NCBI GenBank assembly: GCA_964538865.1
Contig: CAZIHU010000002.1
Span: 30,163 to 94,162 of the forward strand
Origin: an uncultured Candidatus Peribacteria bacterium
GTDB lineage: Bacteria; Patescibacteriota; Gracilibacteria; UBA1369; UBA12470
Reading direction: 5' to 3'
DNA length: 64,000 nucleotides
The notes under the pieces were generated by a model. The model was not told the origin of the DNA. It was given only the letters and a program-made list of their open reading frames with translations, and did not search any database. Position numbers and translations under genes: made by a program. Below are positions 4,136-48,991 of the stretch, piece after piece (position 1 is the stretch's first letter; each line of letters starts with the position of its first letter).

Positions 4136-5077
4136 TTAATAAACAAAAATACCAACCATCAAAGGAATATAAAAAAGAGCAAAAACCGTACTTAACAAAA
4201 CAGCAACAGCAGCCTTTTCCGGATGAGCCTTAAGCTCAGTCGCCAAAGTCACAGTATTAGCCGCCAGAGGAACGATCGCCATCAAAATAAAAATCCCATA
4301 AACCGCCGAATCATAAAATTGAAAAAACTGCCTATCCAGCGCGACAAGAGAGAGCATGATAATCGGCCAGACAATAAATTTTGCCAAAAAAGACAAAGAA
4401 ATAAATTTAAAATCAAAAGCACGAATACAAACTGTCGCTAGCCCCATCCCGATAATCATCATCCCAAGCAAGCTGTAAGCCCCCTTGAAATACTCGATAG
4501 TCGTAAGCCCAATCTCCCCGAGATTAAGATTTAATAAATTGCAGATAATCCCAACAAAAAAAGCATAAATCGTCGGCAGCCGCACCACCTTCATCAAACT
4601 TTCACGAGCAGTATAGTTGCCTTTAGCCGTAATATAAAAACCCAAAGAATTTTCATAAAAAATATATCCAAGAATCGCCAATACCGCTAAACAAAAAGCT
4701 TCATCACCAAACAACATCAAAGCAACAGGCAGCCCAAAATAACCAGTATTCCCAGCACCTGCAGTAAACGCCAAAATATTCTTAGTCGAATCATTCTTGT
4801 AAACAATTTTTCCAATCCCAAAAAACACAAGACACATGCTGCAGCAAATCAAAAAGAACAAAACCGGCAACGACAAATTCGCAAGAGTCAACTCAGCCGA
4901 AAAAGTCCCATAAAAAACCACCGCCGGAGCAATGATATAGATAAGAAGCTTGGCCACAGTCTCCCTCTGTGCACCCAGAACCTTCGCCGCAATAAACCCC
5001 AAAAGAATCATCAAATACAGCGGAATCAGCTTGAGCAGGAGTGTGAGGAAGATTGTCATGGACCCAGTATTACACAT
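4136..5077 (-). CDS. AEC (auxin efflux carrier) family membrane transporter
   Basis: 313 aa, about 10 hydrophobic segments, N-terminal LLKLIPLYLMILLGFIAAK and overall layout typical of AEC/membrane transport protein family. Confidence 0.75.
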   Translation of the reverse strand: MCNTGSMTIFLTLLLKLIPLYLMILLGFIAAKVLGAQRETVAKLLIYIIAPAVVFYGTFSAELTLANLSLPVLFFLICCSMCLVFFGIGKIVYKNDSTKNILAFTAGAGNTGYFGLPVALMLFGDEAFCLAVLAILGYIFYENSLGFYITAKGNYTARESLMKVVRLPTIYAFFVGIICNLLNLNLGEIGLTTIEYFKGAYSLLGMMIIGMGLATVCIRAFDFKFISLSFLAKFIVWPIIMLSLVALDRQFFQFYDSAVYGIFILMAIVPLAANTVTLATELKAHPEKAAVAVLLSTVFALFYIPLMVGIFVY

Positions 5078-11607: not shown

Positions 11608-12498
11608 TCACGAAAACAAGCCCGTACTTAAATATTTCTCACCCCGATCAGGGAAGACTACAACGATATTGCCGCGATCGAGATTTTTAGCGACAGAAAG
11701 TCCAGCCACCAAAGCCGCCCCCGAGCTCATCCCAACAAAAACACCTTCCTCCCGCGCAAGGCGCCGGGCCATTTTATAAGCATCTTCTTTCTCGACAGAA
11801 ATTCGCTCATCAATCGCACCATTATCAAAAATATCTCCGTGAAAATCCCCCTCCGGATTCTGCAAACCTTGGATTTGATAGCCAGATGGTGGAATAACTC
11901 CAATAATACGCGTATCAGGAGAACTTTCACGGAATTTCTTAGAAAATCCCATGATAGTTCCGCTTGTCCCGGTTCCTGCTACTAAAGCATCAATACCCTC
12001 AGGCAAATCCTCCAAAATCTCCTCAGCAGTGTAGTAATGAGCCTCTGTGTTATCTGGATTGTTAAATTGGTTCGAAAACCAATATTTCTCAGGAGACTGC
12101 TTAGTAAGCTCACGCGCCTTAGCGATCGCACCTCCGGTTCCAAGCGCTTTATCGGTCAAAATAAGCTCAGCACCATAAGCTCTCATAACGGTTCGTCTTT
12201 CCTCGCTCATACCTTCGGACATGAGGATTTTGACTTTGTAGCCTTTTTGGGCGGCAACCATAGCCAGCGCTATCCCCATATTCCCACTTGTCGCTTCAAG
12301 AATAGTCATCCCAGGCTTAAGTTGCCCGCGTTTTTCGGCTTGTTCGATCATAAAAAGCGCAGCACGATCCTTGATAGAACCGCTGGGATTTTGGCCTTCC
12401 AGCTTCGCGTACAGGTTGACTCGCGGATTCTGCGTGAATTTATTGAGTTTCACGAGGGGGGTGTTGCCAATTGAGTTTAAAAGATTGTTATAAATCAT
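11608..12498 (-). CDS. cysK: cysteine synthase (O-acetylserine sulfhydrylase)
   Basis: 296 aa; GNTPLVKL, PLP-lysine region NPSGSIKDRAA, TSGNMGIALA, GTGTSGT loop. Confidence 0.9.
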   Translation of the reverse strand: MIYNNLLNSIGNTPLVKLNKFTQNPRVNLYAKLEGQNPSGSIKDRAALFMIEQAEKRGQLKPGMTILEATSGNMGIALAMVAAQKGYKVKILMSEGMSEERRTVMRAYGAELILTDKALGTGGAIAKARELTKQSPEKYWFSNQFNNPDNTEAHYYTAEEILEDLPEGIDALVAGTGTSGTIMGFSKKFRESSPDTRIIGVIPPSGYQIQGLQNPEGDFHGDIFDNGAIDERISVEKEDAYKMARRLAREEGVFVGMSSGAALVAGLSVAKNLDRGNIVVVFPDRGEKYLSTGLFS

Positions 12499-12515
12499 AG
12501 TTTTTAGGGTTAAAT

Positions 12516-12545
12516 TAAAAAAACTCTCGATCTGGATTCGAGAGT
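12516..12545 (-). terminator. intrinsic terminator inside the cysK leader (attenuator stem 3:4)
   Basis: Minus-strand RNA ACUCUCGA-AUCCAGA-UCGAGAGU followed by U7, ending about 17 nt before the cysK ATG. Confidence 0.7.
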
Positions 12546-12571
12546 CGCTGCAAGGTGTTTTTATTTAAAAA

Positions 12572-12643
12572 TCAACACAAACAGGCGGCTCTCGGGAGAG
12601 AGCAGCAACAACAAGTTAAATTGTGTAAATTTTGAATCTTCAT
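12572..12643 (-). CDS. candidate Cys-rich leader peptide (23 aa) of cysK attenuator
   Basis: ATG AAG ATT CAA AAT TTA CAC AAT TTA ACT TGT TGT TGC TGC TCT CTC CCG AGA GCC GCC TGT TTG TGT TGA = MKIQNLHNLTCCCCSLPRAACLC*; TATAAT lies 9 nt upstream of its ATG. Confidence 0.6.
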   Translation of the reverse strand: MKIQNLHNLTCCCCSLPRAACLC

Positions 12644-12704
12644 CTCACTACAATTATACATCTTTCCGGGGGGCTTGTAAAGTCTTGCTTTGTACAAGGA
12701 GAGG

Positions 12705-12826
12705 GTGGGATGACGCTTTGCTTCGCAAAGCTAGGCTTCTGCGTCTTGCTCGGTAATGTCTAAATTTCATTTAGCCATTACGCTCACTCGACTTGAAGCA
12801 GCGAACCCTGCGGGTCCGCATCCCAC
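12705..12826 (-). ncRNA. candidate structured RNA linked to tRNA-Ser (copy 2)
   Basis: Same architecture as 7095..7218 with changed but still pairing stems: closing stem GUGGGAUG/CAUCCCAC, hairpin GCGGACCC-GCA-GGGUUCGC (G.U only on minus strand), apical CUAAAU-GAA-AUUUAG, hairpin GCUUUGC-GAA-GCAAAGC. Confidence 0.55.
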
Positions 12827-12875
12827 TCTCGGCTAATCGAACTCAGCCCTTACCTTCGGCAAGGTCTGATTTCGA

Positions 12876-12967
<92 letters not shown>

Positions 12968-12999
12968 GTAATTTAGCAGAAAGGATTATAGGCGACACT

Positions 13000-13063: not shown

Positions 13064-13675
13064 TTAATGAATAGCCTGAGGAATCCAATGAGTATCACGG
13101 AGCTCAACAACTGGTTCTCCAGTGTTAGGATCAACTACTTGTTCTCCAGTCCAATAATCAATAACAGGAGTCTCAAACATGATGTATCCATCACAATCAC
13201 CTGTTCTCTCATCAACAGTAACAGCGACAACAGGGATCTCCCAAGCAAACTGAGCAAAATCTACAGAGGTATTAGTACAATAATGAAACGTAAGCGCATC
13301 AAGCTCTTCATATTCAGCTTCGCAGTCGCTCCTCCCTTCATCACTCATACATACGGTAACCTCTTCCTCGATAGGGCCTGCCTTCATGTATTTAGGTCCA
13401 TAAGCAGTTTCTACTAACAATTTCATTACACCGCTCTTCGTAGCGTCTACCGTGGTGGACATTTCGATACACTCAATATAACCACCGCTCGAACCACCGA
13501 TTATATGTGCATCCTCTTCAACCGTAAGAGTAGCGTCAGCTTCTTCTCCGCATACAAAACCGTCATTATAACAATTCTTAGCAGTTTGTGGGAACATGTC
13601 GCAACCACCAGCTAATCCCGCAGCAACACCTGCAGCAACAAGCCAACTTGTTTTTTGTACTTCTGTTGAAGTCAT
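13064..13675 (-). CDS. lipoprotein, hypothetical
   Basis: 203 aa; signal plus lipobox LAGGC; upstream TTGACT-17-TTTAAT promoter-like boxes and TTTAACCC box 10 nt before ATG. Confidence 0.6.
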   Translation of the reverse strand: MTSTEVQKTSWLVAAGVAAGLAGGCDMFPQTAKNCYNDGFVCGEEADATLTVEEDAHIIGGSSGGYIECIEMSTTVDATKSGVMKLLVETAYGPKYMKAGPIEEEVTVCMSDEGRSDCEAEYEELDALTFHYCTNTSVDFAQFAWEIPVVAVTVDERTGDCDGYIMFETPVIDYWTGEQVVDPNTGEPVVELRDTHWIPQAIH

Positions 13676-19709: not shown

Positions 19710-19916
19710 CTATTCTACTGTCTCAGGAAGATTTAAATCCTCGACTTGTCCTCGAGCTTCTTCTGTGACTCGTGCTGCTACAGTAGGCTCCCGAGGAGGA
19801 AGGGGAGCAGGGACAGCGCCACCTACGTAAAACCCAGCTGCTTGTTCGTCGATGCCTCTCAATCTTGGTTCCGCTGGAGGAGTAGTAGGGTCTCCTTCGT
19901 TACTTCGTGTTGTCAT
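19710..19916 (-). CDS. small Pro-rich hypothetical protein
   Basis: 68-aa ORF; shares a duplicated about 60-nt upstream region with the next ORF. Confidence 0.4.
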   Translation of the reverse strand: MTTRSNEGDPTTPPAEPRLRGIDEQAAGFYVGGAVPAPLPPREPTVAARVTEEARGQVEDLNLPETVE

Positions 19917-19977
19917 GACATTGCATGTTAGATAATAAATACAGGAAAAACTTATACCCTACCTGCCCAAGTCAGAA
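19917..19977 (-). promoter_or_regulatory. duplicated upstream region, copy A
   Basis: About 85 percent identical to 20221..20285; contains GGTAGGGTATAAG and CTAACATGCAATGTC immediately before ATG. Confidence 0.5.
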
Positions 19978-20220
19978 TTAAGCCGTCATACGCCCATTAT
20001 AAAGATCTCGCCAGTTACGCAAATCAGGCTGGATTCTATTGCAGTGAGCTGCTAAATCAGATCGAAGCTCACCCGGCCCATATGGTGAGGCAGATTCTGG
20101 TTGTACCGGGCTTGCAGGAGCTTTTTGTACAGTTGTGGAGCTGGGTAGTCCGTCGTATTGTTCGGAGCCAAACGGGCCTGGGAATTCACCCCCTAGTGTA
20201 CCGCATCTTAATTGAGTCAT
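19978..20220 (-). CDS. small Pro-rich hypothetical protein
   Basis: 80-aa ORF; TTGACA-18-TATAAG upstream. Confidence 0.4.
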   Translation of the reverse strand: MTQLRCGTLGGEFPGPFGSEQYDGLPSSTTVQKAPASPVQPESASPYGPGELRSDLAAHCNRIQPDLRNWRDLYNGRMTA

Positions 20221-20300
20221 AACATTGAATGTTAGATAAAAATAAATACAGGAAGAACTTATACCCTACCTACCCAAATCGTGTCAAACTTTTTTCATAA
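20221..20300 (-). promoter_or_regulatory. duplicated upstream region, copy B, with sigma70-like promoter
   Basis: TTGACA-18 nt-TATAAG, then palindrome AACATTCAATGTT abutting the ATG. Confidence 0.5.
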
Positions 20301-20373: not shown

Positions 20374-20583
20374 ATGACTGAATCCAAAATTGAACAACTT
20401 GTTAAGAATGCAGCCTTCTTACCACCCAAACAGAAGGAGGTGCTGCTGCGCCTAACCAAAGATTTGCCCCAAGAGAAACTAAAAAAAATCGAAGAATTTC
20501 TCAAAAACGCAAGAAAAGATCTAACAGACATGGTTCACACTCAAAACACAAAACGACAAAAATTAATCTCAAAACATGGTTAA
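20374..20583 (+). CDS. hypothetical small protein
   Basis: 69 aa; TTGCTG-17-TATAAT with only 8 nt between -10 box and ATG (leaderless-type arrangement). Confidence 0.5.
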   Translation: MTESKIEQLVKNAAFLPPKQKEVLLRLTKDLPQEKLKKIEEFLKNARKDLTDMVHTQNTKRQKLISKHG

Positions 20584-48079: not shown

Positions 48080-48991
48080 ATGACTCAAAATCACAAAAAT
48101 CACAAAAAACGCATCCAAAAAGTCGGCCTCGTCGGCCGCAGCAACCTTGATGGACGCAAAACTTATATCAAAAAAGTCATCAGATACCTCAAGAAGCATG
48201 TGGAAGTGGTTAAATACGACACAAGAATCGCAAATTGCCTCGGGGGTCGCGAGAATCACATGACCCGTGCCAAACAGATGCGAGATATGGATTTGATCAT
48301 AACCCTCGGCGGCGACGGAACCCTCCTGAAAGCGGTTAGAGAAATGGGTAAAAAACCCAATCCAATAATACTGGGCGTACATCTGGGAACGGTCGGATTT
48401 CTTACAGAAGTGCATAAAGCTGAAAAAATATTCGATGTACTAGACAAGGTTTTTAAAGGTCACTACAAAATCGATGACCGCGATCTCCTCCGTACCACGG
48501 TTTATAGAGATGGGAAAAAATTCAAAACCTTCCTCGCACTCAACGATGCAGTAATTAATCAGGGAAATTTCGCTCGACTAATCGAGCTTTCAGTCACAAT
48601 AGACCAACGAAAAATGATTCGATTCAAAGCAGACGGAGTAATCGTAGCAACAACAACAGGTTCAACAGGCCACTCCCTATCGGCAGGAGGCCCAATCATA
48701 CATCCAAGCCTGTCGGCCTTCATCATGACACCGATTTGCCCCTCCGCATTGACCACAAAACCGATCGTAATCCCAAACAATCGCCAATTAAACATAAAAA
48801 TCGAAACAGAACGCCGTTACTCCGACAACGACATCGGCCTCACCCTCGACGGCCAAGTCATCCTCCCACTCAAATACAGCGACGAAATCAAAATTCGCAA
48901 ATCCAGCCGCCGCGCCAACCTAGTTCGCATCACAAACAAGCGTTACTATAAGATGCTGCGTACCAAAATAGGGTGGGGGAAAGCGGTGTAA
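48080..48991 (+). CDS. nadK: NAD kinase
   Basis: 303 aa; GGDGTLL motif, NDAVI, TGSTGHSLSAGGPI-type region. Confidence 0.88.
   Translation: MTQNHKNHKKRIQKVGLVGRSNLDGRKTYIKKVIRYLKKHVEVVKYDTRIANCLGGRENHMTRAKQMRDMDLIITLGGDGTLLKAVREMGKKPNPIILGVHLGTVGFLTEVHKAEKIFDVLDKVFKGHYKIDDRDLLRTTVYRDGKKFKTFLALNDAVINQGNFARLIELSVTIDQRKMIRFKADGVIVATTTGSTGHSLSAGGPIIHPSLSAFIMTPICPSALTTKPIVIPNNRQLNIKIETERRYSDNDIGLTLDGQVILPLKYSDEIKIRKSSRRANLVRITNKRYYKMLRTKIGWGKAV

Follow-up and report, generated by a model that had tools for sequence, protein, structure and literature searches.

Introduction

To our knowledge, cysteine is among the few amino acids for which no textbook leader-peptide transcription attenuator has been described. 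In attenuators of this kind, represented by the trp, his, leu, thr, ilv and phe leaders of Proteobacteria and some Actinobacteria (the Yanofsky model), a promoter-proximal open reading frame (ORF) rich in codons for the end product is followed by mutually exclusive helices 1:2, 2:3 and 3:4 and by a U-tract terminator before the biosynthetic gene, and the position of the ribosome decides the outcome. Here we describe an element with the same arrangement upstream of a cysteine synthase gene (cysK) in a 64,000-nt stretch of DNA, called the window, from an uncultured Candidatus Peribacteria bacterium (assembly GCA_964538865.1, contig CAZIHU010000002.1, positions 30,163 to 94,162). The element is probably, with a probability of roughly 80%, a ribosome-mediated transcription attenuator that senses the charging of Cys-tRNA(Cys) and controls cysteine synthase.

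Three described systems come closest with respect to cysteine. The polycysteine leaderless small ORFs (sORFs) of mycobacteria are cysteine-responsive translational attenuators by experiment (Canestrari et al. 2020, bioRxiv 10.1101/834739; Mol Microbiol 114:93). Their poly-Cys region pairs with the Shine-Dalgarno (SD) sequence of the next gene in a very stable duplex, no intrinsic terminator is present, and the authors stated that cysteine attenuation mediated by an upstream ORF (uORF) had not been described before their study (10.1101/834739). The uORFC-8-2 motif of Rhodobacterales is a predicted Cys-Cys uORF with a terminator before cysS (Brewer et al. 2021, PMC8632094). Candidate Cys leader peptides have also been proposed before cys and cbs operons of Mycobacterium, P. 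acnes and B. longum (Seliverstov et al. 2005, PMC1262725).

The element in the window differs from the classical attenuators in several respects. Cysteine would be sensed; the leader ORF is predicted to be leaderless or nearly so, whereas theirs is SD-led; the stop codon comes after segment 2 (between segments 1 and 2 in theirs) and has a second Cys cluster ahead of it; Rfam contains no matching leader family; and the hosts are uncultured small-genome bacteria, with metagenome-assembled genomes (MAGs) labelled Peregrinibacteria, Peribacteria, Moraniibacteriota and Gracilibacteria. With the mycobacterial sORFs it shares a short ORF that here is probably leaderless, consecutive Cys codons, a Cys tract near the C-terminus of the peptide and a location upstream of cysteine-metabolism genes (cysK1 in M. 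tuberculosis); their response to cysteine through ribosome stalling is here proposed. Unlike them, it has a terminator/antiterminator pair, lacks an SD sequence and does not pair with the start region of cysK (12516-12499 is single-stranded in the minimum-energy fold), and the sequences are unrelated. Judged from its sequence, the element has every feature of a classical attenuator and lacks the defining feature of the mycobacterial translational class.

The uORFC-8-2 motif, like the window element a prediction, also has tandem Cys codons, stems that overlap the codons and a U-run terminator. It controls a cysteinyl-tRNA synthetase gene in alpha-proteobacteria, has its two Cys codons at positions 14-15 and differs in sequence and structure. 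The window element is not uORFC-8-2, as its downstream gene encodes cysteine synthase and is not cysS; it also has no Rfam match, though the motif may not be in Rfam 15. The candidates of Seliverstov and colleagues are likewise short ORFs with Cys-codon runs near the stop upstream of cysteine-synthesis genes. No terminator or conserved hairpins accompany them and their mode of action was left open, whereas all attenuator components are present here. A preliminary description of the window, made from the sequence alone, had regarded leader-peptide attenuation of cysteine genes as only sparsely predicted and as new for this kind of reduced genome. Given these precedents (10.1101/834739, PMC1262725, PMC8632094) the novelty is smaller than it implied; none of them concerns candidate-phyla bacteria, and in the searchable literature no leader-peptide attenuator was found reported in such bacteria or upstream of their cysK. 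What appears to be new is the proposed use of the trp/his mechanism for cysteine in a group that has been little studied, together with a probably leaderless leader ORF and a second Cys cluster.

Results

Promoter, leader ORF and RNA helices upstream of cysK

All element coordinates refer to the minus strand of the window. A predicted sigma-70-type promoter (12653..12681) consists of TTTACA (12681-12676) and TATAAT (12658-12653) separated by 17 nt. It matches at 11 of 12 positions and is the top promoter-like site across 8-18 kb, and the positions of its -35 and -10 boxes are kept in 15 related loci. The leader ORF (12572..12643) comprises 23 codons plus TGA and encodes MKIQNLHNLTCCCCSLPRAACLC, with the ATG at 12643 and the TGA at 12574-12572. 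The ATG lies 9 nt past the -10 box in the window, and the spacing is 6-9 nt over the window, the close family and the loci L009, L011 and L092 (6-7 nt in the relatives). Judged from this spacing, the ORF is probably leaderless or preceded by a 2-3 nt leader.

The leader peptide contains 6 Cys among 23 residues, including a CCCC run, compared with a window average of 1.7% Cys. Cys cluster 1 (codons 11-14, TGT TGT TGC TGC, 12602..12613) is the proposed ribosome stall site, and Cys cluster 2 (codons 21 and 23 within TGT TTG TGT, 12575..12583) lies just past segment 2 and just before the stop. At a Cys content of 1.7%, the binomial chance of at least 6 Cys in 23 residues is about 2e-6, and second-order Markov simulations gave 0.27 runs of at least 4 Cys codons per 128 kb. 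The run in the leader is the sole intergenic one in the window; the other three, at 48658, 27546 and 4211, lie within long ORFs, and a hand count, made for the run at 4211 only, places it outside the reading frame of its ORF. A chance origin of the leader run is unlikely.

In Gracilibacteria, UGA is read as Gly. Under that code the leader ORF would run through the terminator. This possibility was rejected because 16 of the 52 long ORFs of the window, full-length cysK among them, end in TGA, which indicates that TGA does serve as a stop in this genome.

Between the ATG region and cysK, the RNA has a minimum free energy of -32.5 kcal/mol (z = -3.6) and forms two hairpins, 1:2 and the terminator. 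Hairpin 1:2, GC.GCUCUC-UCCC-GAGAGC.GC (12585..12606; -11.9 kcal/mol, z = -3.7), would sequester segment 2 and may also serve as a pausing hairpin. The alternative helix is the predicted antiterminator 2:3 (12538..12595), in which segment 2 (12595-12580) pairs with segment 3 (12552-12538), a segment that includes the complete 5' arm of the terminator. In its core, CGAGAGCCGC (12594-12585) pairs with GCGACUCUCG (12548-12539) at 9 of 10 positions. The whole 2:3 fold reaches -20.1 kcal/mol (z = -4.9); the 2:3 duplex, at -17.0 kcal/mol, spans 9 of the 9 nt of the terminator 5' arm and was matched by 11 of 2000 shuffles. The predicted intrinsic terminator 3:4, GACUCUCGA-AUCCAGA-UCGAGAGU plus U7 (12517..12546), has a 9-bp stem and a 7-nt loop. 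Its hairpin (12546-12523) has an energy of -11.7 kcal/mol (z = -4.1), the U7 tract occupies 12523-12517 with its first U closing the stem, and no terminator-like site in 10 kb ranks higher. The genome contains more intrinsic-terminator-like sites than expected (35 versus 18.4 +/- 4.4 in 20 kb). Rfam at the gathering threshold reported two tRNA-Ser genes only, so that the element has no matching family, and a search of 12400-12900 at E up to 10 returned noise only and no T-box match.

These results agree with the anatomy given in the preliminary description. Its promoter, written as TTACAA-16-TATAAT, is the same site; the 23-codon ORF with four consecutive and six total Cys codons is present, as is the stem GCUCUC-UCCC-GAGAGC adjoining the Cys run (found at 12606-12585); the 9-of-10 pairing of segments 2 and 3 was reproduced, and the terminator with U7 was recovered as the top-scoring site. 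Folding of the alternative structures yielded three mutually exclusive helices with z-scores from -3.7 to -4.9. The terminator was correctly placed just upstream of cysK, and the distance from the U-tract to the ATG (12498) is 18 nt instead of the "about 17 nt" given there.

Conservation of the leader in related loci

Fifteen metagenome contigs encode the exact CysK of the window (JGI 3300009106, 3300009375 and 3300009008; ENA SUTE22-1 assemblies). Five of them (L161-L165) were compared and all were identical to the window over 1.4 kb (11608-12998), which made them uninformative as a test of population variation. The occurrence of identical contigs in several metagenomes indicates a recurrent, clonal population.

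Cysteine synthase relatives were sought in one genome per species and in public metagenomes, and none above 68% identity was found in either. Among cysK homologs of at least 60% identity, all those with sufficient upstream DNA carry a Cys-run mini-ORF, located 70-95 nt before cysK (about 25 loci, 15 distinct sequences). The MAG labels of this set are mostly candidate phyla; those of the closest loci are mixed and include Peribacteria and Peregrinibacteria, also 'Gammaproteobacteria', 'Saccharibacteria' and 'Omnitrophota'. The typical peptide of this close family is MK..N.YNQ.NNCCCGLG.VPRSACLCL, ending at the stop codon. The promoter boxes are TTTGCA-17-TATGAT-like, with the -10 box ending 6 nt before the ATG, and GGCUCUCGGAAC..CCGAGAGUUUUUU comes after the leader ORF. 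The window ORF and the close-family consensus, with 23 and 28 codons, differ in length by whole codons, and related leader ORFs have 21-33 codons. The upstream neighbour is a tRNA-Ser gene in the window and an unrelated protein-coding ORF in L005; as it is not conserved, the leader travels with cysK.

No such leader was seen upstream of approximately 130 cysK homologs at 46-55% identity (Deltaproteobacteria, Enterobacterales, archaea). Four or five loci at 51-57% identity, most of them in MAGs labelled as candidate phyla, are exceptions and do carry one. These diverged leaders, each with a terminator, have unrelated or barely related sequences, and their MAGs are mostly labelled Moraniibacteriota, Gracilibacteria and other candidate phyla. 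The leader peptides, each ending at a stop codon, are MKVNVKSCICLESVPGCCFLL in L009, (V)QIFYYILKNCCCDTEIYSGIAYLCCNH in L093, MLLISNCACCCCISCGGGCCK in L011, MNPKKANSHNFQLNSLFCCCCNHLIAQGAAFFC in L022 and MTPNTNKAANTCCSHGTIPRSACCCC in L092. The four-segment layout is kept in L009/L142, L093/L148, L011, L014/L022 and L092 despite the differing sequences. Cluster 1 is kept as CCC, CCCC or CC in all lineages, with synonymous TGT/TGC changes between relatives. Orthologous loci keep the Cys-run mini-ORF, the terminator and the overlapping stems, a comparison that the preliminary description had named as a check.

Several other observations were made in the compared loci. The distance between terminator and cysK is 180 nt in the Moraniibacteriota-labelled locus L014 (2821-3000) and 28 nt in its relative L022; the extra DNA of L014 is highly self-complementary and resembles a repeat inserted between attenuator and cysK. 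In the short contig L008 (about 60-210), the cysK N-terminus MKNLLQTIGNTPIINT… runs into a stop and the match resumes about 100 nt further on at residue 17, which may reflect an assembly artefact, an insertion or a pseudogene. A 15-codon ORF encoding MLCCLQRLSQSYHPF (variants such as MPCCLQKLSRSCRLV), each followed by a stop, is conserved about 300 nt upstream of archaeal cysteine synthase homologs, at about -345 to -297 (L131, L134, L136-L139, L143-L146, L150-L153, L156, L157, L050 and L062; Bathyarchaeia-type). The short, conserved ORFs MLQVLRCCL and MFQELRCCL upstream of Maridesulfovibrio cysK homologs were considered as leaders and rejected, as they lie on the opposite strand of a divergently transcribed gene, over its conserved 5' end.

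Covariation of the pairing segments

The ORF part past the first Cys cluster was compared with the 5' arm of the terminator of the same locus in nine sequences with explicitly chosen terminators. Complementarity was found in 9 of 9 sequences, with duplexes of -9.8 to -18.8 kcal/mol that were equalled by 1 to 92 of 2000 shuffles, depending on the lineage. In eight of them the whole 5' arm is covered by the duplex; in L022, 5 of the 6 nt of the arm are. The geometry is consistent across lineages, with 6-16 nt between the Cys cluster and segment 2, 1-19 nt between the end of segment 2 and the stop codon, and a terminator that follows 22-31 nt after the stop codon.

A covariance model built from the close family with the 1:2 and 3:4 structure found the window element with 79 bits (E = 1e-13) as the sole copy in 64 kb. 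The diverged lineages scored 25-52 bits overall (51-52 bits for L093/L148, 44 for L022, 34 for L014 and 26-29 for L142/L009), and L011 was not found by this close-family model. A 22-sequence alignment based on the model, including the diverged lineages, was fitted to 1:2 and 3:4 and not to 2:3. In this alignment the two fitted helices, 1:2 and 3:4, show 92.9% pairing and nine pairs in which both sides have changed; the 1:2 equivalent, likewise fitted, is 90% paired with 7 such pairs, and the terminator helix is 97% paired. The 2:3 helix is 87.9% paired compared with at most 59% when the partner was slid, and its covariation score was 0.193 versus 0.150 +/- 0.013, a value reached by 0 of 500 shuffles. 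Column pair 82:140 is AU in 13 sequences, GU in 5 and GC in 4, and column 140 also pairs with terminator column 162 (UA 16, CG 4, UG 2). The changes at this shared column in both 2:3 and 3:4 indicate that segments 2, 3 and 4 change together, and such coordinated change, as read from the alignment, is what mutually exclusive pairings require.

Folding simulation and proposed mechanism

In the simulation, a 30-nt ribosome footprint with an assumed leading edge at +14 nt was masked and the 127-nt transcript was refolded under an equilibrium model. Without a ribosome, the 1:2 hairpin and the terminator formed. With the A site on Cys codon 11 or 12, the 2:3 antiterminator formed and the terminator was lost, and with the A site on the stop codon the terminator formed again. 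L005 and L022 switch as the window does, and L011 switches only at the first masked Cys codon. The trp/his-type architecture proposed in the preliminary description is complete in the window and kept in relatives with covariation, and masking the first Cys codons with a footprint switches the predicted fold to the antiterminator.

From the observed elements, energetics, conservation, covariation and in-frame Cys bias (see below) we infer the following scheme, in which the transcription start, the stalling of the ribosome, the efficiency of termination and the response to cysteine are all conditional. Transcription would begin at TTTACA-17-TATAAT, and the leader ORF would lie 0-3 nt from the 5' end of the RNA so that a ribosome could load once the RNA emerges. 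When Cys-tRNA is plentiful, the ribosome would pass the four Cys codons to the stop, where it would cover segment 2 or let it re-pair with segment 1. Segment 3 would then be free to pair with segment 4, and the terminator with U7 would halt transcription at about nt 127, 18 nt before cysK. When Cys-tRNA is scarce, the ribosome would stall with the first Cys codons in the A site and hide segment 1 and not segment 2, so that 2:3 would pair once segment 3 is made and transcription would read through into cysK, which would be translated from its own TTTAACC-type initiation region.

The cysK gene and its start region

The gene at 11608..12498 encodes a 296-aa pyridoxal phosphate (PLP)-dependent cysteine synthase of the CysK/CysM subfamily. 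It matches the TIGR01136 cysKM profile end to end with 367.7 bits (cutoff 344.15) and scores under both the cysK-specific and the cysM-specific cutoffs; PF00291 is annotated for the same protein on other contigs. The protein contains no Cys in 296 aa (P of about 0.007 at the 1.7% average). Among seven leader-bearing homologs examined, five have no Cys and L022 has one, L009 being unscored. A Cys-free cysteine synthase fits an enzyme that is needed when cysteine is lacking.

A promoter-like site was looked for in the 18 nt between the U-tract and the ATG and none was found; on this evidence, cysK is reached only via the terminator. The motif TTTAACC (12508..12514) lies at -16 to -10 relative to the cysK ATG and is probably a non-SD ribosome-binding signal on the read-through transcript. 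SD-like motifs precede only 3 of 51 long ORFs and none precedes cysK, whereas TAAC starts at -15 or -14 in 13 of the 51 and at -20 to -9 in 16 of them, with about 3% expected by chance. TTTAAC(C) occupies -17 to -11, for example before cysK and the genes at 13675, 16002, 17307, 22175 and 25705, and looks like a non-SD translation-initiation signal in these genes; the 16S rRNA lies outside the window. Downstream of three strong canonical promoters, TTTAAC falls within the predicted 5' untranslated region (5'UTR), which indicates that it is not a -10 box and not a promoter that bypasses the terminator. The earlier remark that this genome otherwise uses leaderless or short-leader mRNAs is borne out in part, by the SD-like motifs before 3 of 51 ORFs and by the leader ATG 9 nt past the -10 box.

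Probable translation of the leader ORF and alternative readings

Within the leader ORFs of seven lineages, TGY triplets occur 39 times in frame and 6 and 4 times in the other two frames (P = 4e-11), and in each of the 22 sequences no stop codon interrupts the frame until just past segment 2. The non-Cys residues GLG.VPRS of the close family are encoded by segments 1 and 2 and are absent from the diverged lineages. The in-frame bias, the TGT/TGC swaps, the open frame and the unshared non-Cys residues argue, at the level of sequence, against both a switch of structure only and a functional peptide. A C-terminal Cys cluster is present in every lineage, with the TGY triplets of the last six codons in frame 15 times versus 4 and 1 (P = 1.7e-4); the peptides end in …ACLC, …ACLCL, …ACCCC, …LCCNH, …GCCFLL, …GCCK or …FFC before the stop.

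Several results weigh against simple attenuation by ribosome stalling. In the simulation only the first two Cys codons switched the fold cleanly, and a stall on Cys codon 13 or 14 partly covered segment 2 and left the terminator intact. In L092 and L093 the terminator stayed the minimum-energy fold with a stalled ribosome, so that these loci would need a kinetic argument in which 2:3 forms before segment 4 is transcribed. Hairpin 1:2 of L009 is weak and no better than shuffles (201 of 500). In the close family alone (16-sequence alignment A1) pair-count covariation was not significant, and the signal arises from the diverged lineages added through the model-based alignment; the close-family sequences are too similar and gaps in the terminator loop disturb the alignment. 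At the position of Cys cluster 2, a ribosome that stalled would hide segment 2 and so promote termination, and the simple model leaves this conserved cluster unexplained. It may tune a threshold, form a U/G-rich pause site after hairpin 1:2 or extend the antiterminator pairing.

An unlikely elaboration is that the leader is a conserved two-cluster leaderless Cys sensor with a thresholded or band-pass response, in which cluster 1 antiterminates and cluster 2 either enforces termination or sets the timing of RNA polymerase pauses. Somewhat less likely still is a ribosome-dependent attenuator that follows no simple rule of low cysteine switching the gene on, either because it has a two-checkpoint or threshold response or because cluster 2 and its U/G-rich context form a site of RNA polymerase pausing or synchronisation. 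The frame-biased C-terminal cluster of all seven lineages is consistent with such a device, as cluster 2 sits 1-19 nt past segment 2 and a stall there would mask that segment; in every lineage U/G-rich sequence follows hairpin 1:2, like a hairpin-dependent pause site. However, cluster 1 is met first and would suffice alone for the classical decision, and the distance separating the clusters ranges from 27 to 45 nt, which gives no sign of a fixed ribosome-to-ribosome geometry.

An independent gene for a Cys-rich peptide, metal-binding or a precursor resembling a RiPP (a peptide made on the ribosome and modified after translation), with its own terminator and with cysK transcribed from a separate non-canonical promoter after that terminator, is very improbable. 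The close family does conserve residues beyond the Cys run (…CCCGLGxVPRSACLCL) and the A/T-rich TTTAACC stands between terminator and cysK. These residues are, however, encoded by segments 1 and 2, and the diverged lineages share the Cys codons and the RNA pairing scheme and not the peptide sequence. The 18-nt gap and the position of TTTAAC in predicted 5'UTRs speak against a separate promoter, the covariation of 2:3 and 3:4 would be purposeless for a stand-alone gene, and no maturase or partner gene other than cysK is conserved nearby. A switch of RNA structure only, bound by a metabolite, a protein or tRNA and with the ORF and its Cys codons as untranslated by-products, is equally improbable, since the stable, conserved helices and the tendency of U/G-rich stems to yield UGU/UGC-rich sequence are set against the frame bias and open frame given above, a start codon kept 6-9 nt past the -10 box, ORF lengths that differ by whole codons, the absence of a T-box or other Rfam match even at E up to 10, and the lack of any further conserved structured domain able to bind a ligand.

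Other features of the window

Between tRNA-Ser(tga) (12876-12967) and the leader promoter lies a 186-nt spacer (12698-12875, minus strand) with a fold of -79 kcal/mol (z = -6.0), in which GAGAGUGGGAUG / CAUCCCACCCUCUC close a cloverleaf-like multibranch that follows a hairpin. The 3' end of tRNA-Ser is repeated exactly and in direct orientation over 14 nt (ATCCCACCCTCTCC, at 12698-12711 and 12880-12893). Neither ARAGORN nor Rfam reported anything in the spacer, which is absent upstream of the L005 leader and may represent the remnant of a tRNA, a duplication of att type or an unknown small RNA.

Two copies of an approximately 55-nt direct repeat, …acattg.atgttagataa.aataaatacaggaa.aacttataccctacct.cccaa…, lie at 19920-19975 and 20220-20280. 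Each copy lies directly upstream, on the minus strand, of a small ORF (19710-19916, 68 aa; 19978-20220, 80 aa), and the arrangement resembles a duplicated unit of a promoter or 5'UTR plus a small gene. The Cys run at 20441 (plus strand) was considered as a second leader before the gene at 20576 and rejected, as it is out of frame in a 69-aa ORF whose true reading is V-L-L-R.

Discussion

The proposal of the preliminary description that the leader is tuned to Cys-tRNA charging and controls cysteine synthase is supported by the anatomy of the locus, its conservation and its covariation, from which this function would follow. If so, the element family supplies a complete terminator-based cysteine version of classical attenuation. 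Metagenomes could be annotated for leaders of this type with the covariance model and with the motif, which combines a Cys run, CGAGAG/CUCUCG-type segments and a U-tract.

The hosts are uncultured small-genome bacteria in which gene regulation is almost unstudied. Conservation of the leader would imply that transcription and translation are coupled closely enough for attenuation in these organisms, that leaderless initiation serves a regulatory ORF in a largely SD-less genome, and that the cysteine synthase truly serves the supply of cysteine and not another role. Should the two-cluster sensor prove true, its wide conservation with cysK would show tight coupling and genuine cysteine biosynthesis in reduced-genome candidate phyla.

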